From positions 82,711 through 146,710 of the forward strand of contig JALOQK010000003.1 in assembly GCA_025453395.1 (NCBI GenBank): 64,000 bases of DNA, read 5' to 3'. Each line of letters begins with the position of its first letter. Positions within the stretch are counted from its first letter, which is position 1. Below are positions 53,188 through 63,961 of the stretch, one piece after another. The translations under genes and the position numbers were made by a program. Source of the DNA: Candidatus Omnitrophota bacterium. GTDB lineage: Bacteria > Omnitrophota > Gorgyraeia > Gygaellales > Profunditerraquicolaceae. The notes beneath the pieces were generated by a model. That model had not been told where the DNA came from. It searched no databases and was given only the letters and a program-made list of their open reading frames with translations.

Positions 53188-53317
53188 TAAAGTAAATCTA
53201 ACACAGCAGCCCTAAGATGTAAAGGGAATTTAGGATTGTAAGGGAAATGTAAAATCAGCTTAAAAGGTATTGCAATTGTCTTTGGAAAGAGGTATATTTT
53301 GTATAAGGAGAATTATC

Positions 53318-56300
53318 ATGGAAAAGATTACCGGGAATAAAGGGATGGTTCTTATTGTTTCTCTTTTCTTGGCCATTGTAATCGCTACCATGGCTGGCAT
53401 ATTATATTTTCGCGCGGTTAACGAATCGCGTTTGTCAGTAATAAGCGACGCGGCGCTTCAGGCTTTTTACGAAGCAGAGGCGGGACTGGCTTTTGCTTAT
53501 GCCGCGGAAAAAAAGAGCAATTTTACCTGGTTTACCCACGCAGATAAGATTACAAAGGCAAGCGCAGTTTCGGTTCCTTCTGGCGTTCCGGGCGCAATTG
53601 ATAACTCAAGCGGTTGTTATGTTGTATCAGGGCGTAATTTTAAAGTCAAAACTTTCCCAGAGAAAAAAGGTACTGTTGAAACCGGAATTGTGGTTGTGCT
53701 GTCACAGGCTACTATTAACGGGGTTACCCGTACTTTAGAGCATCGCATTGGCCAGAAATCCGCTTATCAATATTTTTTCTTCTTTCCTGAAGACCACACC
53801 TTTGATACCGCCACTTACGACGGACGCAACTTTGGCGGGCTTCATGTGAATGGCGATATCAACCTTATCAACCATCCGACCTTTGCTTTCTTAACTGAAT
53901 TAAGCAGCGGTTCAAATACTTCCCATAAAGGCTATATCCGAAGGCCGCTTTTAGAGGCCTTTACAGCTTTAAGCGGCAACAAGGATTATAATATTTCAGC
54001 TTCTAGCGTCCAAGGGCTTCCATGGCAGCTTTATACAAATATTAACTATCGCACTTCAAACGGAGATATCGGTTCAGGAACATATACTACTTTTAAGATT
54101 GGCGATATCAACAGCCCCGCAACAATAAATATCCCAGAATATATGGGCGGGCAGTGGTCATTTGATAAATATACCAAGGCGGGTTCGCCCACAACTTATA
54201 ATATTACGGAAACCTCTTTGAAGAATGCCGGATTGCGAGAGATTACTTCTTCCGCAGGAGATGTTTCCTTGTTTGATAATAACAAATCTATCAATATCAA
54301 CTTTGGGGGTTCACCAGAAAGCCTTACTGAGAAAGAAATGTTTAAGAGGATATACAACCTTCCGGATGATCAGCAAACCAGTTATTGGAGCCAATATTGG
54401 GATCAGTGGAAAGTCAATCATAATTCCGATTATTCAGCTTATCATACTTCTGGAGTGTTAACAGCGGGAGATGATTGGAAAAGAAGATTATTTTGGGCAA
54501 CTTATGACTGGAAAGATTACAATTCTGACGGTATCCCTTACGGAATAAACCGGGAGTGGTGGGAAGATTTAAGTTATGGAGACGATTATTACGATTATGG
54601 CCCTAATGGCACATCCCCGGCCTGCGTGGTAGACCACGACACAGGATTGTCATTAGATAAATATTTCTTGAACACAGAAGAACAGGGTACGCAATGGAAA
54701 AATTTGTTAGATGCAAACAACCTTGATGAGGCCGCAGATAATAAAACCCTTGTTTTAGACAGAAGCCAGGGCGGCAAAGAAATCAATGCCGGGGATATCA
54801 TTAGCAATTATGATACTTCAAGTTATAGTGTTTTAGAAGGCCAAGCGCGCAACAGCGGGATTTATATGGGGGTTAAGACTGATCAGGCCTATAAGGATTG
54901 GCAGATTTTGGCTGTGACTGCCAGCATGAAGGCAAATTCTGCGCTTGATAAAGCGAATGCCAAATTTTCTGAATGCACGGTAAAATATAATCAGACCGCA
55001 TGTTCTTCAACTTCCGGAGGCTCAACATCAGCAGAAGCCGTTGCTTGTTGGTCAGATTATAGCGGCCTATACCAAAAATATACTCAAGCTTATGGCGAAT
55101 ACACGCAAGTTATGCAGGATAAGCCTCCTACTGTTTGGTGGGAAGGTAAAAATTCAAATCTTCTTAAGGATTGCGTTTCTGAAACTCCGTTTTATAACGC
55201 GCAAAACCCTGCCCGGGGCAGCGATGGGAAATATTCTCCCAGCCATATCCTTACCATTGATTTAGCTAAGCTTAAAAGCAATATTGACCAGAAAGGTTCG
55301 GGTTTTAACGGGATCATCTATATAGATTTGGACGCTTACCAATGGCAAGAGAATACTGTGGATGACGGAACTAAAGTTTCAGATGAAAAGAGCGCTATTG
55401 GAGTAATGTTTGTTAATGGAGAGCGCCTTCCGGATCAGGGTTTAAGCATAGTTACTAAGCATAATGTTTACGTTAAGGGGGATTTTAACCTTGACCCGGA
55501 TGGAGATTCTAGCCGTAACCGCGCTGCCGACCCCTCAAATGTTTTAAATACCGTTGCGAATAATAAAGGCCTTGATGTTGATGATTTTAAATGGCGCCCA
55601 GCGGAAATAATCACCTACAGGCAGGTATACTTTCTATCGAATGATTTCAATCTGCCAAAAACCATGCCTTTATTGGATACACAATATGGGCAATTTTACG
55701 ATGAATATTATAATAAGACTCGAGCGGATGTGGTTACGCATCCTTTATATGGCGCACCGGATACTGCCACAAGCGCTTCTGCCAGTTGGATGCCTGCGTA
55801 TAATAGCTCGGATTCTTCATGGGGGAAGATAAATGATTGGTTTTCTCTTACCGGGATAACCCCCCCAGCTTCATGGGATGTAAACTGGCTTGATGGCAAT
55901 CAGCTGAACCAGATGGATTCCACCCCGGATTTGTTAACTGGCGTAAACGGGAAACAATACCCCAAATGGGATAATTACAGCTGGAGTGATTCTTATGTCT
56001 ATAAATTAGACGATGGCTCAGGCGGGACAACATATATCATGCGTCAGGATTTAAAGTATCAACTTTATAGCAAAGTACTGAGTGCCTATAGAAATCAATA
56101 CGCTTACAATGTTAGTAACTCGCCCGCGGCATACCAGATGGTTGATGTTGTGACCCGCCCGGAAAGCTATATTTACAATACGGCAGTGATTACTCCCTAT
56201 GCCCCAGAGGGGTATAGTTTAGAGCGCTGGAACAATAAGAATCGCGTGATTAACGGCGCGTTTATTCAGCTGCCTTCAGGTATGCAACTTCCCGTTCCCG

Positions 56301-56476
56301 TTGAATCTTATAAGGATACTGGTTCCGGAGCAATAAGGTTTAACCAGCCCAAGAAAACATTTAATTATGAGTCTCGCTTTGGTAAAAACGGGGATCCTTC
56401 TGATCAGCCCCACGCAAGGTTATTATTTGGCATGGATTCAACATGGAGGGAAATAAATAATGCCGCGTTTCAATAA
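53318..56476 (+). CDS. Giant PilX-N-domain minor-pilin-like protein (about 1050 aa), a putative pilus tip adhesin
   Basis: N-terminal 'KGMVLIVSLFLAIVIATMAGILYFRAVNESRLSVISDAALQAFYEAEAGLAFAYA' matches the PilX_N pattern (hydrophobic helix + 'QAFyaAEAGl'). The remainder is N/Y/W/D/S/T-rich with no TM. Confidence 0.55.
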   Translation: MEKITGNKGMVLIVSLFLAIVIATMAGILYFRAVNESRLSVISDAALQAFYEAEAGLAFAYAAEKKSNFTWFTHADKITKASAVSVPSGVPGAIDNSSGCYVVSGRNFKVKTFPEKKGTVETGIVVVLSQATINGVTRTLEHRIGQKSAYQYFFFFPEDHTFDTATYDGRNFGGLHVNGDINLINHPTFAFLTELSSGSNTSHKGYIRRPLLEAFTALSGNKDYNISASSVQGLPWQLYTNINYRTSNGDIGSGTYTTFKIGDINSPATINIPEYMGGQWSFDKYTKAGSPTTYNITETSLKNAGLREITSSAGDVSLFDNNKSININFGGSPESLTEKEMFKRIYNLPDDQQTSYWSQYWDQWKVNHNSDYSAYHTSGVLTAGDDWKRRLFWATYDWKDYNSDGIPYGINREWWEDLSYGDDYYDYGPNGTSPACVVDHDTGLSLDKYFLNTEEQGTQWKNLLDANNLDEAADNKTLVLDRSQGGKEINAGDIISNYDTSSYSVLEGQARNSGIYMGVKTDQAYKDWQILAVTASMKANSALDKANAKFSECTVKYNQTACSSTSGGSTSAEAVACWSDYSGLYQKYTQAYGEYTQVMQDKPPTVWWEGKNSNLLKDCVSETPFYNAQNPARGSDGKYSPSHILTIDLAKLKSNIDQKGSGFNGIIYIDLDAYQWQENTVDDGTKVSDEKSAIGVMFVNGERLPDQGLSIVTKHNVYVKGDFNLDPDGDSSRNRAADPSNVLNTVANNKGLDVDDFKWRPAEIITYRQVYFLSNDFNLPKTMPLLDTQYGQFYDEYYNKTRADVVTHPLYGAPDTATSASASWMPAYNSSDSSWGKINDWFSLTGITPPASWDVNWLDGNQLNQMDSTPDLLTGVNGKQYPKWDNYSWSDSYVYKLDDGSGGTTYIMRQDLKYQLYSKVLSAYRNQYAYNVSNSPAAYQMVDVVTRPESYIYNTAVITPYAPEGYSLERWNNKNRVINGAFIQLPSGMQLPVPVESYKDTGSGAIRFNQPKKTFNYESRFGKNGDPSDQPHARLLFGMDSTWREINNAAFQ

Positions 56477-56867
56477 GAATAAGGGTTTTAGTTTGATTGA
56501 AATCCTTGTTGCCTGCGTGATTATCGCGGCATCCGCAGGAGCTTTTATGCTGTCTTTAGGCCAGACAGCTAAGGCAACCGGAACATTTGATGATACCGAT
56601 ATAGCGCTTAATGCCGCCCAGTCTAAGATGGAAGAGGTCGGAAATGAAGATTTTAGCACCGATAATATAGCTAATATTATATCAGCATACAATAATAAAT
56701 ATTTCGCGGTATCCGGGCTTTCCGCGCCAAACAATTGGCCCAACCCAATACTTGTGACTATAAGCCAGATCAATAATGATTTATATGATGTTTTGGTTAA
56801 AGTAAGTTGGCAGGCCAGGGGAAGGACATATCTTAAGCAATTAAAAAGGACATTCGCTTTGAAATAA
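56460..56867 (+). CDS. Type IV pilin / pseudopilin with prepilin N-terminal cleavage-methylation motif
   Basis: 'NKGFSLIEILVACVIIAASAGAF' = G|FxLIE prepilin peptidase site plus hydrophobic helix. Confidence 0.75.
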   Translation: MPRFNKNKGFSLIEILVACVIIAASAGAFMLSLGQTAKATGTFDDTDIALNAAQSKMEEVGNEDFSTDNIANIISAYNNKYFAVSGLSAPNNWPNPILVTISQINNDLYDVLVKVSWQARGRTYLKQLKRTFALK

Positions 56868-56868
56868 T

Positions 56869-57486
56869 ATGAAGAATAAGGGGTTTACTTTAGTTGAAGT
56901 ATTTATTTCTGCGGGGATAATGTTATTGGTTGTTGGGACAGCCTATACTATTATCTTGACAGGAAATTTTTCTATGAACACGCAGGAAAACGAAATTAAT
57001 GCTCAAAATTCCGCGCAGCTTGCCTTATTTCAAATAGCCCAAGATTTACGCCTTGCAAGCGGAGTTAAGGTTTGGGTTTCTGACGGTTTTGGGACTACAC
57101 AGGGCACACCAGCAGTCGCCTATAAAGTAGTAAACTTTCAAATACCTGTGGGCAGCTTTGAGTCTGCGATAGCTCTGGATAGCAATAATTACATTTCTTG
57201 GGGCAGTGAAAGGCTAAGCTTAAGCGATGATGGCACGGGTAATTATATCGCTTATAGCCTCGATAACCAGGGCCAGATCATAAGGACAGTTTATAGCGCG
57301 TCTGGCACAGTCTATACCACTAAAAAGACAAGGATTGTGGCAAGGAACATTTCTAGCCTGAATTTCACGCGCAGCTTATCAGAAAATTTACTGCAGATTC
57401 AAATTACTTCTAATATTCTAGCCAGCAAGCAGTCCGCGCCCATACAAAAGACGGTGTCCACGACAGTATTATTAAGGAACGGTTAA
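56869..57486 (+). CDS. Minor pilin (PilW/GspJ-like) with prepilin N-terminal motif
   Basis: 'NKGFTLVEVFISAGIMLLVVGTAY' prepilin motif. 'LALFQIAQDLRLAS' resembles PilW-type minor pilins. Confidence 0.7.
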   Translation: MKNKGFTLVEVFISAGIMLLVVGTAYTIILTGNFSMNTQENEINAQNSAQLALFQIAQDLRLASGVKVWVSDGFGTTQGTPAVAYKVVNFQIPVGSFESAIALDSNNYISWGSERLSLSDDGTGNYIAYSLDNQGQIIRTVYSASGTVYTTKKTRIVARNISSLNFTRSLSENLLQIQITSNILASKQSAPIQKTVSTTVLLRNG

Positions 57487-57613: not shown

Positions 57614-57892
57614 ATGGATTGGGATATAGAGGTAAAAGAGCGCCTAAAGCAGATGACTGCGAAGATTCCGGTTTTTCACCGGCACATTACCCAAAACGCG
57701 GTTACGCTTAAGGCGGAAGAAAACGCCCGCCAAAGAAACTGCCCCAAGGTGGAAGAAGTGGATGTCTTGGGCGCTTTTTTTTCGGATGTGCCTTCGCCAT
57801 TCTACAGTATGATGGTCAGGCTATTAGAGCAAAGCGGTTTTGACTATAAAAAATACGGTTTTCCTAAAACGAAACCCAAACTTATGGAGTGA
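57614..57892 (+). CDS. PCP_red-domain small protein (the domain is otherwise C-terminal in protochlorophyllide reductase subunit B; standalone form of unknown function)
   Basis: 'WDIEVKERLKQMTAKIPVFHRHITQNAVTLKAEENARQRN' matches the PCP_red pattern W..eA...l..iP.fvR..v....E..Ar. Confidence 0.5.
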   Translation: MDWDIEVKERLKQMTAKIPVFHRHITQNAVTLKAEENARQRNCPKVEEVDVLGAFFSDVPSPFYSMMVRLLEQSGFDYKKYGFPKTKPKLME

Positions 57893-58019: not shown

Positions 58020-59030
58020 ATGAAAATTGGGGTTATTGGCGCCGGGGCAATAGGCAACCTTGTTGCCGCGTATCTTAAATTAAAAGAAGAAGATGTTTTT
58101 CTTGCTGGCACAGCATCGTCTATTGATGCCATAAAGAAAAATGGCCTTGATGTTTCTGGTGTGCGCGGAGATTTTCATCTGTCTTTAGATTGCGGATTAT
58201 TGCTTAATGAAAAAAAAGACCTTGTAATACTGGCGGCCAAGACACAGGATTTAAAAGAAGCCCTTAACGCCAACTTAGATTTTATTAAAGGCGCTTTATT
58301 GGTTACTACGCAAAACGGCGTTGCCGCAGATAGTATTGCTGCTGGTTTTGCCCCCAAGGAAAATATTATCTCAAGCATTGTTATGTTTGGCGCTACTTAT
58401 TTAGAGCCGGGAAAAATAGTGCATAATTTTGAAGGAAGCTGGATTTTAGCAGGCGCCTTTGGCAAAAATAATAAAAAAACCCCGCAGGTATCAGAGGTTT
58501 TAAATAAAATATTCCCTTGTTTAGTAAGTGAAGATATCCGGGGGATGAAGTATTTAAAGATCTTTGTTAACGCCAACAATTGTATCCCGGCGGTATTAGG
58601 CCAGAGCATGCAGGAAGCGTTCTCTGACCTAGAAATAAGCAGAATCAGTATTGCTATTTGGAAAGAGGCCATGGATGTGGTTTCGCGCTCTAATATAAAA
58701 CTTGTTTCTCTGCCGGATTTTCCTCTTGAAAGGCTAGTGCGTATGACCCAAATGCCGATTTCCGAAGCCGCGCGCATTTATTCCGGGATCATGGCGTCTT
58801 TAAGCAAACAGCCCGTTTATGGCTCGATATTGCAGAGTATTAAACGTAAACGCGCTTCCGAAATAGATTACATTAATGGCGAATTCGTTTCTCTGGCAAA
58901 AGTCCATAATTCACAGGCGCCGCTTAATGAAATGCTGGTTAGTATGGTGCACAGGGTAGAAAAAACAGGGGATTTCTTTTCAAAAGAAGAGCTTTTGAGT
59001 AAAACCAAAGATTTAGTGGAGAAGATATGA
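58020..59030 (+). CDS. Ketopantoate-reductase-family (ApbA/PanE-like) NAD(P)H-dependent reductase
   Basis: 'MKIGVIGAGAIGNLVAAYL' Rossmann motif. ApbA_C-like C-terminal half ('EIDYINGEFVSLAK'). Confidence 0.65.
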   Translation: MKIGVIGAGAIGNLVAAYLKLKEEDVFLAGTASSIDAIKKNGLDVSGVRGDFHLSLDCGLLLNEKKDLVILAAKTQDLKEALNANLDFIKGALLVTTQNGVAADSIAAGFAPKENIISSIVMFGATYLEPGKIVHNFEGSWILAGAFGKNNKKTPQVSEVLNKIFPCLVSEDIRGMKYLKIFVNANNCIPAVLGQSMQEAFSDLEISRISIAIWKEAMDVVSRSNIKLVSLPDFPLERLVRMTQMPISEAARIYSGIMASLSKQPVYGSILQSIKRKRASEIDYINGEFVSLAKVHNSQAPLNEMLVSMVHRVEKTGDFFSKEELLSKTKDLVEKI

Positions 59031-59620
59031 GCGAAGTCAATACACCGTTCCCAAAACTAAGGTTAACCGTTAGCGCTGTTTATGGTGAATGTTACCATGG
59101 CTACAAAAAGGGCGACGAAATAATTTTAGAGGATTTTACCCACCCGCCAAAGCATTTTTGTCTGGGCCTGGCGCATGCCCTTTTTCCGGTAATTTACGCG
59201 TTAAGTTTCGGAGCAAGATTTCCCTTTCGTGACAATCAAAGGTCTTTATTGGTGACCTGCCCTGATGGTGGTAAGCTTGAATTTAAAGCTGAAATCTTAA
59301 ACAAAGATGGCAAGATAGAAGAAATGCCTAAGGATCCGAATTTCAAAGGGCCAAATCCAAAGAAGATGATAATTGAGGTGGTTGAGGCAAAAGGAAAATG
59401 TACTTTTGGTTATAAAGTAGGCGATAAATGGGAGACTTGTGGCTTGAAGTGTATTCCCGGATTTTGCGGAGCAGCATTTCATACTGCCTTTCCGGCATTG
59501 TTCGCGCTTAATTTTGGCGCCAAGTTCTTTTTTATGCAGGATCCAAATTCTATTGATACTGTAACTTGTCCCGATGGCGGGAACATTATATTTAAGGTAA
59601 AAAGGATTGAAGAGAAATAA
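59027..59620 (+). CDS. Tandem-duplicated TIGR04076-like Cys-rich protein (two copies of about 95 aa, each ending in CPDGG)
   Basis: Internal repeat: 'CYHGYKKGDEI...HPPKHFCLGLAHALFPVIYALSFGARFPF...LLVTCPDGGKLEFK' versus 'CTFGYKVGDKW...CIPGFCGAAFHTAFPALFALNFGAKFFF...DTVTCPDGGNIIFK'. Confidence 0.5.
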   Translation: MSEVNTPFPKLRLTVSAVYGECYHGYKKGDEIILEDFTHPPKHFCLGLAHALFPVIYALSFGARFPFRDNQRSLLVTCPDGGKLEFKAEILNKDGKIEEMPKDPNFKGPNPKKMIIEVVEAKGKCTFGYKVGDKWETCGLKCIPGFCGAAFHTAFPALFALNFGAKFFFMQDPNSIDTVTCPDGGNIIFKVKRIEEK

Positions 59621-59622
59621 TT

Positions 59623-60885
59623 ATGAATAAAAAACGCGTTGTGATTACAGGTTTAGGGGTTATATCCCCCAATGGCATTGGAAAAGATAATGTCTGGCAG
59701 GCGATGGTAAATGGAAAGTCCGCGGTGCGTAGGGTGGATAGTTTTGATGTTTCGGTTTTTAACACCAAGATTGCCGCCGAGGTTAGAGATTTTGATCCTT
59801 TTAAATTGGGCCTAACCCATGACGAGGCCATGCGTATGGACCGCTATGTGCAGTTTGGGGTTGTGGCAGCTGATATGGCGATAAAGGATAGTAAATTAGA
59901 TTTTTCTAAAGTAAACCTAGAGCGCGTGGGGGTGTGCCTTGCCAATGCCATCTGCGGCACAAAATATATGGAAGAAGAATTCGCCCTTGTTACTGATGAC
60001 GGGAGAAATCCCATTGATCCTTTAAAGGTGCGCCCTGATTTGTATGATGCCGCGATGTTTAATACTCCCTCCATAGAGATTTCCGCGCGTTATAAATTAA
60101 AAGGTTTCTGCAACACTCTTTCTACCGGTTGCACCGCCGGGACAGACTCGCTTGGATTCGGTTTAGAGGCCATTCAGGACGCAGAACAGGATATTATGGT
60201 CTGTGGCGCGGCCGAGGCGCCGATTACGCCGATTACCTTTGGGGCTTTTGACGTGGTCAATGTCTTGTCTGTGCATAATGATATTCCGGAACAGGCCTCC
60301 AGGCCGTTTGATAAGAAACGTAACGGCTTTGTGATTTCCGAGGGGGCAGGGATACTTATCTTGGAAGAATTAAGCCACGCCTTAAAAAGAAACGCGCATA
60401 TTTACGCGGAGGTATCGGGTTTTGGCACAAGCTGTAACGCCTTTCATATGACTGACCTGCCTTCTGACGGAACAGCTATGGCAAATTGTATTAATCTTGC
60501 CCTTGCCGATGCTTCTATGAAACCGCAGGAGATCGATTACATAAATGCCCATGGCTCTTCCACGCGCATGAACGATATCTTTGAGACTGCGGCCTATAAA
60601 ATGTCATTTGGGGATTACGCCTATAAATTGCCGGCAAGTTCCTTAAAATCCATGATCGGCCACCCGTTAGCTGCGGCAAACGCCATAGAGTTAGTGGTTT
60701 GTTGTTTTATTTTTAAGAATAATATTCTTCCTCCGACAATAAATCAAGAGGAGCGCGACCCTTTATGCGACTTGGATTATGTTTCAAACGTGGCACGGGA
60801 AAAGAAAGTAAATACAATATTAAAGACTTCAAGCGGTTTTTCAGGGATACATTCGGCCTTAATTGTGAAGAGGTTCAAAGAATAA
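59623..60885 (+). CDS. Beta-ketoacyl-ACP synthase (KAS I/II / type-II PKS KS-alpha-like), catalytically complete
   Basis: 'RVVITGLGVISPNG'. Active-site Cys in 'LSTGCTAGTDSL'. 'NAHGSST' His and 'MIGHPLAAANAIE' His are both present. Confidence 0.8.
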   Translation: MNKKRVVITGLGVISPNGIGKDNVWQAMVNGKSAVRRVDSFDVSVFNTKIAAEVRDFDPFKLGLTHDEAMRMDRYVQFGVVAADMAIKDSKLDFSKVNLERVGVCLANAICGTKYMEEEFALVTDDGRNPIDPLKVRPDLYDAAMFNTPSIEISARYKLKGFCNTLSTGCTAGTDSLGFGLEAIQDAEQDIMVCGAAEAPITPITFGAFDVVNVLSVHNDIPEQASRPFDKKRNGFVISEGAGILILEELSHALKRNAHIYAEVSGFGTSCNAFHMTDLPSDGTAMANCINLALADASMKPQEIDYINAHGSSTRMNDIFETAAYKMSFGDYAYKLPASSLKSMIGHPLAAANAIELVVCCFIFKNNILPPTINQEERDPLCDLDYVSNVAREKKVNTILKTSSGFSGIHSALIVKRFKE

Positions 60886-60886
60886 A

Positions 60887-62119
60887 ATGGATAGAAAAAT
60901 AGCAATCACAGGTTTAGGGATAGTCGCTCCTTCGGGAATAGGCCGTAGGCAGTTTTGGGCAAACATTAAATCCGCAAGAAGCTTTGTGAAAAAGATCAAC
61001 CGTTTTGACGCTTCTCGGTATCCATCGCATATTGCCGGGCAAATTGATGAGCTTGATAAGTATAGCAATGTCTCCGAGCGGCTTCTAAAAAAGATGGATG
61101 CCTTTTCCCACATGGCGTTGATTGCTTCGGAGCTGGCGTTAGAGGATGCCAAGATTGATATAAAAAAAGAAGACCCGAATTTAGTGGGGATATTTTTGGG
61201 CAATGCCATTGGCGGCTGGCTTTATGCCGAAACAGAATTAAGGGACCTGTATATTGAGGGAAGAGACGGAGTTTCTCCTTATATGGCCTCAGCCTGGTTT
61301 CCGGCTGCGCCGCAGGGCCAGGTGTCTATTTATTACGGGATAAAAGGTTTTTCTAAGACCGTTGTTTCTGACCGCGCCAGCTCCCTTGACGCGTTAGGCT
61401 ATGCCAGAAAAACCATTTCTAAGGGCAAGCTAAATATGATTTTAGCCGGAGGCATGGAAGCGCCGGTTACTCCTTATGCTCTTTTATGCTGCAATACTTA
61501 TGGCGGGCTTTCCGTAGAGAATGATAACCCGGAAACAGCCTATAGGCCATTTGATAAGAAAAGAAGCGGGTTTGTTATTGCTGAAGGAGCCGGGATAGTG
61601 GTGTTAGAGCCGCAGGAAAGAGCTTGCAAGCGAAATGCTCCGGTTCAGGCCTATATCTGTGGTTATGGCTCTACCTGCGACGCAGTAGACAGGATTAATC
61701 CGGATAAAGAAGGCAAAGAATTAGCCCGCGCGATTAACATGGCTTTATCTGATGCTAACTTTTCTCCTGAAGATATTGATTATATAAGCCTTGATGGCTT
61801 AGCAGTGGGCGTGTGGGATGATTCAGAAATTAAAGCCCTAAAAGAGGTTTTTGGAAAGCGTATGGAAAAAATACCAGTTAGCTGCCCCAAGAGCATGTTT
61901 GGAAACTTATTGGGCGCATCTGGGGCGGTGGACCTTATCGCAACAATTTTAGCTATGGAGAATAATTTGATTCCGCCTACCATAAATGTAGAATCTTGCG
62001 CCTATGAAGGGATAAACTTGATTTGCAATAAGGCAGTTCCAGCAGAAATAAAAAAAGCGCTTATTATCTCCCGCGGCAGAGGCGGGATAAATTCAGTCTT
62101 GGCAATAGAGAAAGCATAA
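60887..62119 (+). CDS. Ketosynthase-like protein lacking the Cys-His-His triad (KS-beta / chain-length-factor-like partner)
   Basis: Thiolase fold ('IAITGLGIVAPSG'). The Cys position reads 'VVSDRASSLDA' with no Cys. The 'HGT' position reads 'SLDGLAVG'. The 'GH' position reads 'FGNLLGASGA' (His to Asn). Confidence 0.7.
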   Translation: MDRKIAITGLGIVAPSGIGRRQFWANIKSARSFVKKINRFDASRYPSHIAGQIDELDKYSNVSERLLKKMDAFSHMALIASELALEDAKIDIKKEDPNLVGIFLGNAIGGWLYAETELRDLYIEGRDGVSPYMASAWFPAAPQGQVSIYYGIKGFSKTVVSDRASSLDALGYARKTISKGKLNMILAGGMEAPVTPYALLCCNTYGGLSVENDNPETAYRPFDKKRSGFVIAEGAGIVVLEPQERACKRNAPVQAYICGYGSTCDAVDRINPDKEGKELARAINMALSDANFSPEDIDYISLDGLAVGVWDDSEIKALKEVFGKRMEKIPVSCPKSMFGNLLGASGAVDLIATILAMENNLIPPTINVESCAYEGINLICNKAVPAEIKKALIISRGRGGINSVLAIEKA

Positions 62120-62227: not shown

Positions 62228-63688
62228 ATGAAGATTTTATTTGTGATGCCTAAAGTTGGAGCCTGGGCTACCCACGGAATACATCGTTCGCCTAACCAGC
62301 TTTACGCGCATTGGGCCGCCTATGTCCGCGAAAGAGGCTATAAGGATATCGCGGTTATAGACGGAAAAGCTGATCAGACCCCTATGGATGAATTAGTCCA
62401 AAAGGTTAAAGTTATAAATCCCGATGTGGTAGTTATGGGTGAGCAGCTGCATGGTTATGGCGGATACGGGGTCCTAAGGCATTTTAAAGAAGCAGCGCAA
62501 AAGATTAAAAAGGCGCTTCCCAGGACTAAAATCATCTTAGGCGGCTTGTGGTATTCAGCTATGCCAGTACCCACCCTTGAGGAAAACCCGGAAGTAGATT
62601 TTATTGTCATGGGCGAAGAAGAATCCTTTGGCGATTTAATAGAAGCAATAGACAAAAAAACGGATCTTAAGAATGTAGGAGGGGTTACTTCTCGCGTAGA
62701 CGGACAAATTGTGATGGGGCCGCATAAACCATTAATGAAAGACTTGGATAAATTGCCTTTGCCGGCCTATGATTTGTTTCCCATGGATAAATATGTGGGC
62801 CACACTTATTGGAAACCATTTGTGGATATGGTAACAAGCCGCGGTTGTCCTTCGGCGTGCACATTTTGTTATGAGTGGGATCAATATGATCCTCGCCATC
62901 CTTCGGATTTTTTGACTTGGCGCGCCAAATCTCCAGAGAGAGTCATTGAGGAGATGGAAGTCCTGCAGAATAAATATGGGGTAAAGGTAGTAGTTATCCA
63001 GGATGATAATTTTAATGTCGACCCGGAACGGGTAAGAAAATTTTGTGAATTAAAAAAGAAGAAGAAAATTGATATTAAATGGGTTTCCTTAGGAAGAGCC
63101 ATTGACTGGGTGAATTGTGAACAAGTATTGCCATTAATGAAAGAAACCGGGCTTTTTATGGGAGTTTTCGGCATTGAGGTAACTACACAGTCAGAGCTTA
63201 AGAAAATCGCCAAGGGTATTACTCTTGATCAGATCCAGAAAACTATTGAGCTTTTGCGCAAACACGATATCGCCATTGTCGCGGATATTATGATGGGTTT
63301 TGATTATGACACCGAGCAGATTATTAAGAAGCGATTTGAATTTACCGATCAGGTTGATCCGGATATTTTGTGGGTGGGCTACGTAACCCCAGCTCCTAAT
63401 TCTCCGATGTGGAGGATCGCCATGAAGAAAAACTGGATCGATCCTAAGAAAGTTGATTTCAGCACTTGGGATTTTCTGCATCCGGTTATTCCTACGGATC
63501 ATCTTACTACCGAAGACTTAGGCAGGCTTGGCTCATGGTGCATGAGAGAATTTTTCTCTAAGCCCGGAAGAATACATAGGATCATGGAAAGCAATTTTGA
63601 TCCTCTAGCGAAGTTATGCTTTAAAGATGTTATGGATGGGATTAATAAATGGGAAAACGCAGCCACTAAAGGTGAAGTGCAGATATAG
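62228..63688 (+). CDS. Cobalamin-binding-domain radical SAM enzyme (class B radical SAM)
   Basis: N-terminal B12-binding-like Rossmann domain. 'SRGCPSACTFC' = CxxxCxxC radical SAM cluster motif. Confidence 0.8.
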   Translation: MKILFVMPKVGAWATHGIHRSPNQLYAHWAAYVRERGYKDIAVIDGKADQTPMDELVQKVKVINPDVVVMGEQLHGYGGYGVLRHFKEAAQKIKKALPRTKIILGGLWYSAMPVPTLEENPEVDFIVMGEEESFGDLIEAIDKKTDLKNVGGVTSRVDGQIVMGPHKPLMKDLDKLPLPAYDLFPMDKYVGHTYWKPFVDMVTSRGCPSACTFCYEWDQYDPRHPSDFLTWRAKSPERVIEEMEVLQNKYGVKVVVIQDDNFNVDPERVRKFCELKKKKKIDIKWVSLGRAIDWVNCEQVLPLMKETGLFMGVFGIEVTTQSELKKIAKGITLDQIQKTIELLRKHDIAIVADIMMGFDYDTEQIIKKRFEFTDQVDPDILWVGYVTPAPNSPMWRIAMKKNWIDPKKVDFSTWDFLHPVIPTDHLTTEDLGRLGSWCMREFFSKPGRIHRIMESNFDPLAKLCFKDVMDGINKWENAATKGEVQI

Positions 63689-63730: not shown

Positions 63731-63961
63731 ATGGATACAAAAGCAAAAATAAAAGATACCTTTGTGAAGCTACTTAAAGTAAAGCCAGAAGAATTAAAAG
63801 ACGAAGTGTCTTTGGTAAATAGCATTGGAGTAGATTCAACCGAGATGGTGGAAGCCTTGATTGCCTTGGAGAAAGTCTTTAATACCAAGCTTGGGCCCAA
63901 AGAGATTACCAAGAATTCTACCATAAGCGAAATCGAAAAAGTTATTCAGTCCAAACTATAA
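63731..63961 (+). CDS. Acyl carrier protein
   Basis: 76 aa. 'IGVDSTEMVEALIALE' contains the phosphopantetheine-attachment DS motif in a helix II-like context. Confidence 0.7.
   Translation: MDTKAKIKDTFVKLLKVKPEELKDEVSLVNSIGVDSTEMVEALIALEKVFNTKLGPKEITKNSTISEIEKVIQSKL

Follow-up and report, generated by a model that had tools for sequence, protein, structure and literature searches.

The window analysed here, a stretch of 64,000 nucleotides from Candidatus Omnitrophota, carries near its 3' end a run of genes that are all encoded on the + strand. The first of these, small92 (57614..57892), encodes a 92-aa protein with weak matches to Pfam DUF2621 and PCP_red, both below cutoff. It is followed by a gene for a PanE/ApbA-family NAD(P)H 2-oxoacid-type reductase (58020..59030; PF02558, PF08546, and TIGR00745 at 147.8 bits against a cutoff of 141), hereafter PanE, and then by the gene of interest (59027..59620), whose 197-aa product we call T2. 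Two ketosynthase-like genes come next. KS-alpha (59623..60885; PF00109 and PF02801) is the catalytic ketosynthase, with the catalytic cysteine (motif STGCTAG) and both histidines (NAHGSST and IGHPL) present. KS-beta (60887..62119), assigned by Pfam and motif alignment, is a chain-length-factor (CLF)-like subunit without the catalytic triad: it is 34% identical to KS-alpha, with Arg in place of the catalytic Cys and Asp and Asn in place of the first and second His, and lacks the Gln of classical CLFs. Downstream lie a lineage-specific tailoring gene for a B12-binding radical SAM (rSAM) enzyme (62228..63688; PF02310 and PF04055), which is BchE-like in that BchE is its best NCBIfam match, at 214 bits and below the cutoff of 481, and a gene for an acyl carrier protein (ACP; 63731..63961; PF00550, PP-binding). 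On the contig (L002), the operon runs on outside the window with an OxyN-like PF04199 cyclase, a TcmN-like SRPBCC cyclase (Polyketide_cyc2), and an SDR ketoreductase (KR), and then with a 129-aa ORF (p129) and an Amidohydro_2 gene. Judged by its gene content (KS-alpha, an Arg-type CLF, an ACP, and OxyN-like and TcmN-like cyclases), the locus is an ancestral-type type II polyketide synthase (PKS) operon, putatively for aromatic products.

As an earlier note on this DNA had it, T2 sits between the reductase and KS genes, with PanE upstream and KS-alpha downstream. The PanE stop and the T2 start overlap in an ATGA, and KS-alpha starts 2 nt past the T2 stop; T2 is co-transcribed with both neighbours and its translation is apparently coupled to theirs. 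The same note had proposed that 59027-59620 holds an internal tandem duplication of a small Cys-rich domain, and had suggested that a TIGR04076 HMM search should return two matches and that the protein should align to itself. Both expectations were borne out. The NCBIfam TIGR04076 model matched two stretches of whole T2 (98.5 bits), and the halves scanned separately scored 48.9 bits (N) and 53.8 bits (C), each above the curated cutoff of 33 bits. By BLASTP, the N half aligned with the C half over 81 residues at 40% identity (E 7e-17). T2 is thus a protein of two TIGR04076 domains, an assignment that also draws on six invariant cysteines and an AlphaFold2 model; no Pfam model covers T2.

A family HMM built in this analysis set the domain borders at aa 9-96 (59051..59314, + strand) and aa 109-197 (59351..59617, + strand), close to but not identical with the limits of 18-100 and 112-195 given earlier. 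Of the ordered motifs that had been described as common to the two halves, C-x-[HF]-G-Y-K-x-G-D, FP-x-[LI]-[YF]-AL-x-FGA-[RK]-F, and CPDGG are indeed present in both. The fourth, C-x-G-x-[AC]-H, fits the first half (CLGLAH) but not the second (CGAAFH), and the feature that they do have in common is C-x4-H. By HMM and alignment, the N-terminal domain is a diverged copy and carries a lineage-specific motif, DFTHPPKHFC. The C-terminal domain is closest to single-domain forms that are PKS-associated or ACP-fused, as judged by HMM, identity comparison, and a single-domain AlphaFold2 model. Among 59 T2 orthologues, mean identity is 66% for N-N comparisons and 62% for C-C, but 36.5% for N-C, and each copy keeps conserved residues of its own; in the N copy, Y23-H24 and D36-F37-T38-H39-x-P41 are near-invariant. 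A search for repeats at the DNA level inside the T2 ORF found none, which indicates that the duplication is old.

Tandem duplication is ordinary for the TIGR04076 family. HMMER was run in full against 1.84 billion cluster representatives and recovered 299 clusters of the family; the best 150 of these (50% identity) divide into 104 with a single domain, 27 with two, 4 with three, and 15 with four. The family even goes by the JGI name "uncharacterized repeat protein (TIGR04076 family)". Hence a fused double copy is not the unusual arrangement that it had been taken for. In some metagenomic loci, two or three separate single-domain TIGR04076 genes stand in succession; these separate tandem genes and the fusions fit a working unit that is an oligomer and has been fused repeatedly. 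T2 resembles the rest of the family in its match to the model, in the three invariant cysteines, G-x-C...K-x-GD, and C-P-D present in each half, and in its copy number, two- and four-copy members being common. It differs in that its orthogroup is Omnitrophota-specific, its copies are diverged, the N copy has the extra DFTHPPKHFC, and the gene is tied firmly to a type II PKS operon.

More than 800 homologues of T2 were found, and the 120 closest listed are ~200 aa long and 80-90% identical; among listed homologues with a source name, all come from Candidatus Omnitrophota/Omnitrophica. One homologue, 82% identical, is labelled Deltaproteobacteria. A scan of GTDB with one genome per species found T2 relatives in 292, and we examined the best 80 loci (clade A; all Omnitrophota, 81-91% identity). 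That the T2 ORF might be spurious is ruled out by the >800 homologues and by the relatives encoded in 292 species genomes. In 80/80 of the best clade-A loci, the genes are colinear in the order small92-PanE-T2-KSa-KSb-rSAM-ACP-cyclase-PKcyc2-KR-p129-Amidohydro_2. Where the contig reaches, small92 is present in 68/68 loci, PanE in 73/73, KS-alpha in 69/69, rSAM in 53/53, and ACP in 46/46; the sole absence in clade A is that of p129 from one locus (39/40). T2 ranks among the best-conserved products of the operon, with a median clade-A identity of 84.8% (rSAM 87.0%, KS-alpha 80.2%, KS-beta 74.6%, PanE 59.6%), a comparison in which T2 is slightly inflated because the 80 loci were chosen by T2 similarity.

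More distant Omnitrophota orthologues (53-63% identity) were examined at four loci, L208 to L211, which represent three further clades and one member of a large ~55% clade. All four (L208, L209, L210, and L211) keep PanE-T2-KSa-KSb-ACP-cyclase. At 47% identity, the T2 orthologue of L007 lies in a small ORF-T2-KSa-KSb run that follows a PPTase gene. Homologues of small92 were found near the T2 gene in L004, L007, L208, and L209. Exceptions to the pattern are L004 and L005/L006, where T2 orthologues of ~55% identity have no KS nearby and another B12-rSAM gene stands one to two genes away. A tblastn search of plasmids with T2 and the related proteins P0137 and P0187 gave no match.

The link to polyketide synthesis extends to proteins outside the two-domain orthogroup. 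First, P0171 and P0180 each consist of a single TIGR04076 domain fused to the N-terminus of an ACP (PP-binding). In L212, P0180 fills the ACP slot of a cluster that reads KS-KS-[TIGR04076-ACP]-PF04199 OxyN-like cyclase-TcmN-like Polyketide_cyc, and a second TIGR04076 gene lies directly upstream of KSIII. Second, P0137, an 88-aa protein with one domain, is encoded between KS-beta and ACP in L213. The KS-beta subunits of all these PKS clusters have D-[RK]-A at the Cys position in common, so the clusters are homologous and form one PKS lineage. These PKS-associated single domains are 42-50% identical to the C copy of T2 and 34-37% identical to its N copy. A homologue search with a single-domain profile was dominated by the two-domain Omnitrophota proteins and brought no new lineages. 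The TIGR04076 family has thus been joined repeatedly, by adjacency or fusion, to PKS ACPs and ketosynthases in several lineages. The suggestion that T2 might act as a substrate-carrier partner comes near what these ACP fusions and ACP adjacencies suggest.

The same note implied a link of T2 to the neighbouring rSAM gene and stated that single-copy family members are typically found near radical SAM genes. A reading along these lines would make T2 a small Fe-S/redox partner, either an electron donor or a maturation factor, of the BchE-like B12 rSAM. Several contexts speak for such a partnership: the rSAM gene in the operon of 53/53 clade-A loci, the B12-rSAM genes beside the KS-less T2 orthologues of L004 and L005/L006, those at both ends of L208, and the three that come after TIGR04076-ACP in L213. 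On the contig of the window itself (L002), a second TIGR04076 repeat protein is encoded directly upstream of an rSAM, and in Bilophila a TIGR04076 member lies two genes from the activase IslB (PMC8667426). Against these stand the operons in which T2 stays with PanE-KS-CLF-ACP and no rSAM gene occurs within 8 kb of T2 (L209, L210, and L211), as well as L212, where none occurs within 8 kb of TIGR04076-ACP; co-occurrence with a radical SAM gene at every locus was therefore not found. The rSAMs of L004/L005, moreover, are only distantly related to that of the window (E 1e-11 to 1e-13). The statement on single-copy members fared no better: across 77 loci of one single-domain subfamily, Radical_SAM was outside the top neighbour families at a distance of one or two genes, and CxxxCxxC was found in only 1/181 neighbours within two genes. 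We conclude that the "near radical SAM" heuristic for TIGR04076 failed in the contexts sampled. The constant partner of T2 is the ketosynthase/carrier core and not a radical SAM enzyme, and we regard an rSAM partnership as distinctly improbable.

The invariant cysteines of T2 are C22, C45, C78, C125, C147, and C181 (59 orthologues), three per half, in agreement with the family pattern of one Cys each in G-x-C, G-x-C-x-x-A, and C-P-D per domain of ~90 aa. In 188 TIGR04076 domain instances, the three cysteines are each 98-99% conserved, and the other conserved positions are the Gly of the K-x-G-D turn (88%), one Pro (89%), and the Pro (92%) and Asp (69%) of the C-P-D motif. The position five residues past the second Cys is His in 43% of these instances and otherwise mostly N, D, Y, or Q. 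Conserved Cys and His residues had been proposed earlier to form a metal or cluster site. The three cysteines are compatible with this proposal, but the histidine is not a family-wide feature. The Cys3 set together with a variable polar fourth position can reasonably be read from these patterns as a putative metal centre, either Zn or an Fe-S cluster.

An AlphaFold2 model of full-length T2, based on 59 orthologues, reached a pLDDT of 94.6 and a pTM of 0.90, the latter implying a fixed packing of the two domains; the C domain modelled alone reached a pLDDT of 92. Each domain is predicted to have the topology beta-beta-alpha-beta-beta. Foldseek found no significant PDB neighbour of the full-length model, and PDB sequence and profile searches with the family alignments gave chance-level matches only. 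The predicted topology and the lack of a Foldseek PDB match led us to reject a known PKS tailoring fold for the domain, whether an alpha+beta barrel of the TcmI/ActVA-Orf6 type or another. The best neighbours of the single-domain model are N-terminal domains of the XdhC/CoxI family, 3on5 and 2we7, and both entries are also among the matches of the full-length model; the likeness is weak (query-normalised TM 0.53-0.56 over ~90 residues, i.e., ~0.55, with a Foldseek probability <=0.66) and not statistically significant. On the strength of this resemblance, T2 could be imagined as a cofactor- or sulfur-handling chaperone of XdhC-like fold, unrelated to the chemistry of the polyketide chain. Given a similarity so weak, we consider such a chaperone very improbable. 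T2 and XdhC/CoxI show no sequence similarity, no Cys motif was established as common to them, and their genomic contexts are unrelated.

Instead, we tentatively favour a reading in which T2 is a pseudo-dimeric, putatively metal-binding Cys3 protein that may well serve as a dedicated accessory subunit of the type II PKS KS/CLF/ACP core. Its two TIGR04076 domains, covalently fused, would form a pseudo-dimer with one Cys3 centre per half. The C copy, which is similar to the ACP-fused and ACP-adjacent single domains, may dock the ACP or KS-CLF, and the diverged N copy may have acquired a contact peculiar to this lineage, perhaps to the PanE-like reductase. The role of T2 would then likely be to service the carrier protein, not to support the rSAM. 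Candidate steps are loading or priming in the absence of the usual Gln from the CLF, or a redox reaction of the chain bound to the ACP.

Comparison with known systems bears on this proposal from two sides. Ancestral clusters of the KS-CLF-ACP-TcmN-OxyN type have already been described, namely den and, cited with it, ant and pcy (PMC7693217). The T2 operon resembles them in the Cys-His-His triad of KS-alpha, the CLF-like partner without the triad, the ACP, the TcmN-like SRPBCC cyclase, the OxyN-like PF04199 cyclase, and the SDR ketoreductase. It differs in having Arg/Lys, not Gln, at the Cys position of the CLF, and it adds the TIGR04076 protein, the PanE-like reductase, the 92-aa ORF, and, in clade A, the BchE-like B12-rSAM. 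Since den, ant, and pcy as presented there have no TIGR04076-type gene, a T2-like gene is not universally required. In the Photorhabdus anthraquinone PKS, on the other hand, a PPTase (AntB) and an AMP-ligase-like protein (AntG) are needed beside KS/CLF/ACP for a working minimal PKS (PMC6638757). AntB and AntG are extra cluster-encoded proteins outside actinomycetes with the kind of role proposed for T2, and as a precedent for extra ACP-servicing proteins they make such a role plausible. T2, built from a small Cys3 domain, has no sequence or fold relationship to AntB or AntG, both of which have a defined catalytic fold.

A broader version of the accessory-subunit proposal would extend it from T2 to the PKS-linked family members as a group. 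The "minimal" type II PKS of anaerobic non-actinomycete lineages would then have a fourth, so far unrecognised component in TIGR04076, a Cys3 metallo-domain acting directly on the phosphopantetheine arm of the ACP; we hold this to be possible but doubtful. The component would occur stand-alone, ACP-fused, or in tandem beside KS-alpha, and would supply a step of which classical systems with a Gln-type CLF have no need, for example priming/loading or thiol/redox chemistry on the tethered chain. If true, the idea would account for the difficulty of reconstituting such PKSs and would give an orphan family its first function.

Omnitrophica KS-CLF pairs have been catalogued, with a mention at catalogue level only (PMC10132072). 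Our literature search found only two mentions of TIGR04076, both in passing, no report linking it to type II PKSs or ACPs, and no paper in which a type II PKS has a Cys-rich accessory protein. It appears, then, that the family membership of T2 was already known and annotated and that the PKS link is unreported; the useful result is this PKS/ACP connection and not the tandem repeat. An orphan, widely distributed three-cysteine domain is fixed in a conserved 12-gene type II PKS operon, which provides a first concrete functional handle on TIGR04076. It also makes T2 a candidate missing component for the reconstitution of type II PKSs of the ancestral or anaerobic kind, enzymes that are attractive for aromatic polyketide engineering outside actinomycetes.

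Outside these clusters, the family occurs in quite different settings. We sampled one single-domain subfamily (C..GHKVGD.W) with a hand-made degenerate DNA pattern and verified 77/80 metagenomic loci. Among the 113 immediate-neighbour ORFs of this one subfamily, the most frequent were 13 Fer4+CCG HdrD-like proteins, 9 AMP-binding proteins, 7 class II aminoacyl-tRNA synthetases, and 4 D-2-hydroxyacid dehydrogenases, counts that are phylogenetically non-independent because one recurrent locus (SIR2, AMP-binding, TIGR04076, and a Fer4/CCG protein) contributes to them. Subfamilies in contexts as unrelated as HdrD-like, AMP-binding, and aminoacyl-tRNA synthetase genes show that TIGR04076 is not PKS-specific; only one branch of the family is PKS-bound. 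Other fusions join the domain to Flavin_Reduct (P0223) and to DUF362 with 2x[4Fe-4S] Fer4 (P0217), and one metagenomic sequence, P0125, joins PanE to T2. The family therefore leans in general towards redox, thiol, and thioester chemistry.

The same contexts could be taken to mean that T2 is a generic low-potential electron carrier with two Cys-ligated clusters, which would play a ferredoxin-like role and feed the PanE-like reductase, AFOR, or KR without a specific ACP/KS contact. The Flavin_Reduct and Fer4 fusions and the prominence of the Fer4+CCG HdrD-like proteins (13/113) point this way, as do an AFOR gene directly upstream of PanE-T2 in L210, the PanE-T2 fusion P0125, and the "CP" after the last cysteine of the domain, which resembles ferredoxin motifs. 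PanE-family reductases, however, use NAD(P)H directly, so no need for an electron carrier is expected. Each domain also has just three conserved cysteines with a variable fourth ligand, and a generic carrier leaves unexplained both the ACP fusions and the adjacency to KS and ACP genes in L212 and L213, which are PanE-less. We therefore judge a generic carrier to be unlikely and retain T2 as a tentative accessory subunit of the KS/CLF/ACP core. As for P0125, it is a single sequence, truncated, that could have arisen from one indel where the two genes overlap in the ATGA.

The two-domain TIGR04076 protein of the type II PKS operon, T2, is not the only family member in this genome. About 4.4 kb past the window end, on the same contig, lies a second TIGR04076 repeat protein of 301 aa with about four degenerate repeats (L002:19371-20276), and a Radical_SAM/Fer4_12 gene is found directly downstream of it. 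Hence, within a single genome, one member of the family is tied to a PKS and another to a radical SAM gene. The family also occurs in other arrangements. In a type II PKS cluster of GCA_030706015.1, a natural TIGR04076-ACP fusion (L212:8001-8510) fills the ACP slot, and a second TIGR04076 gene of the cluster, a single-domain form (L212:15161-15460), lies directly upstream of KSIII and PPTase. Two or three separate single-domain genes stand head to tail in metagenome loci L099, L092, L106, L109, L142, L146, and L157; the fused two- and four-domain proteins probably arose from such rows of genes. In the metagenomic protein P0125 (449 aa), which is cut short by the contig end, the N-terminal part of T2 is joined in frame to a PanE/ApbA reductase. 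P0125 is either a true PanE-T2 fusion or the product of an indel at the ATGA overlap between the reductase stop and the T2 start.

The CLF-like subunit, KS-beta, is encoded at window 60887-62119 (+ strand). Whereas classical CLFs have a glutamine at the position of the KS-alpha catalytic cysteine, an arginine or a lysine occupies it, within the motif V-[SA]-D-[RK]-A-[SG], in KS-beta of the window, of the more distant Omnitrophota loci (L007 and L208-L211), and of the clusters with single-domain TIGR04076 forms (L212 and L213). Given this replacement, one may ask how priming works in this PKS.

In 68 of 68 loci the operon opens with a conserved 92-aa ORF (window 57614-57892, + strand) whose only Pfam matches, to DUF2621 and PCP_red, are sub-threshold. 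Homologs are also found near T2 in L004, L007, L208, and L209 and are absent from L210 and L211. We suggest that this ORF may be a second uncharacterized accessory protein. Just upstream of the operon (window 53270-57486, + strand) are genes for a 1068-aa protein without a Pfam match and for two small proteins with prepilin-type N-termini that match N_methyl weakly; L001 lacks this set at the corresponding place. Ahead of the operon in two other clades are AMP-binding, PNP_UDP_1, IF-2B (MtnA-like), Aldolase_II, and Aldedh genes (L208:35-4764 and L209:99-6265), which look like a 5'-deoxyadenosine or methylthioribose salvage set, and L210 has an aldehyde:ferredoxin oxidoreductase in their place.

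A different gene set recurs in L090, L094, L107, L110, L118, L167, and others: SIR2, an AMP-binding acyl-CoA synthetase, an 89-aa TIGR04076 protein, and an HdrD-like protein of roughly 670 aa with Fer4 and two CCG domains. These loci probably all come from one lineage.

Many GTDB records with the operon (L008, L009, L016, L020, L021, and others) are titled "uncultured Planctomycetales." Their T2 orthologs share 84-91% identity with proteins from records named Omnitrophota, and the titles are probably a naming artifact of one assembly project.
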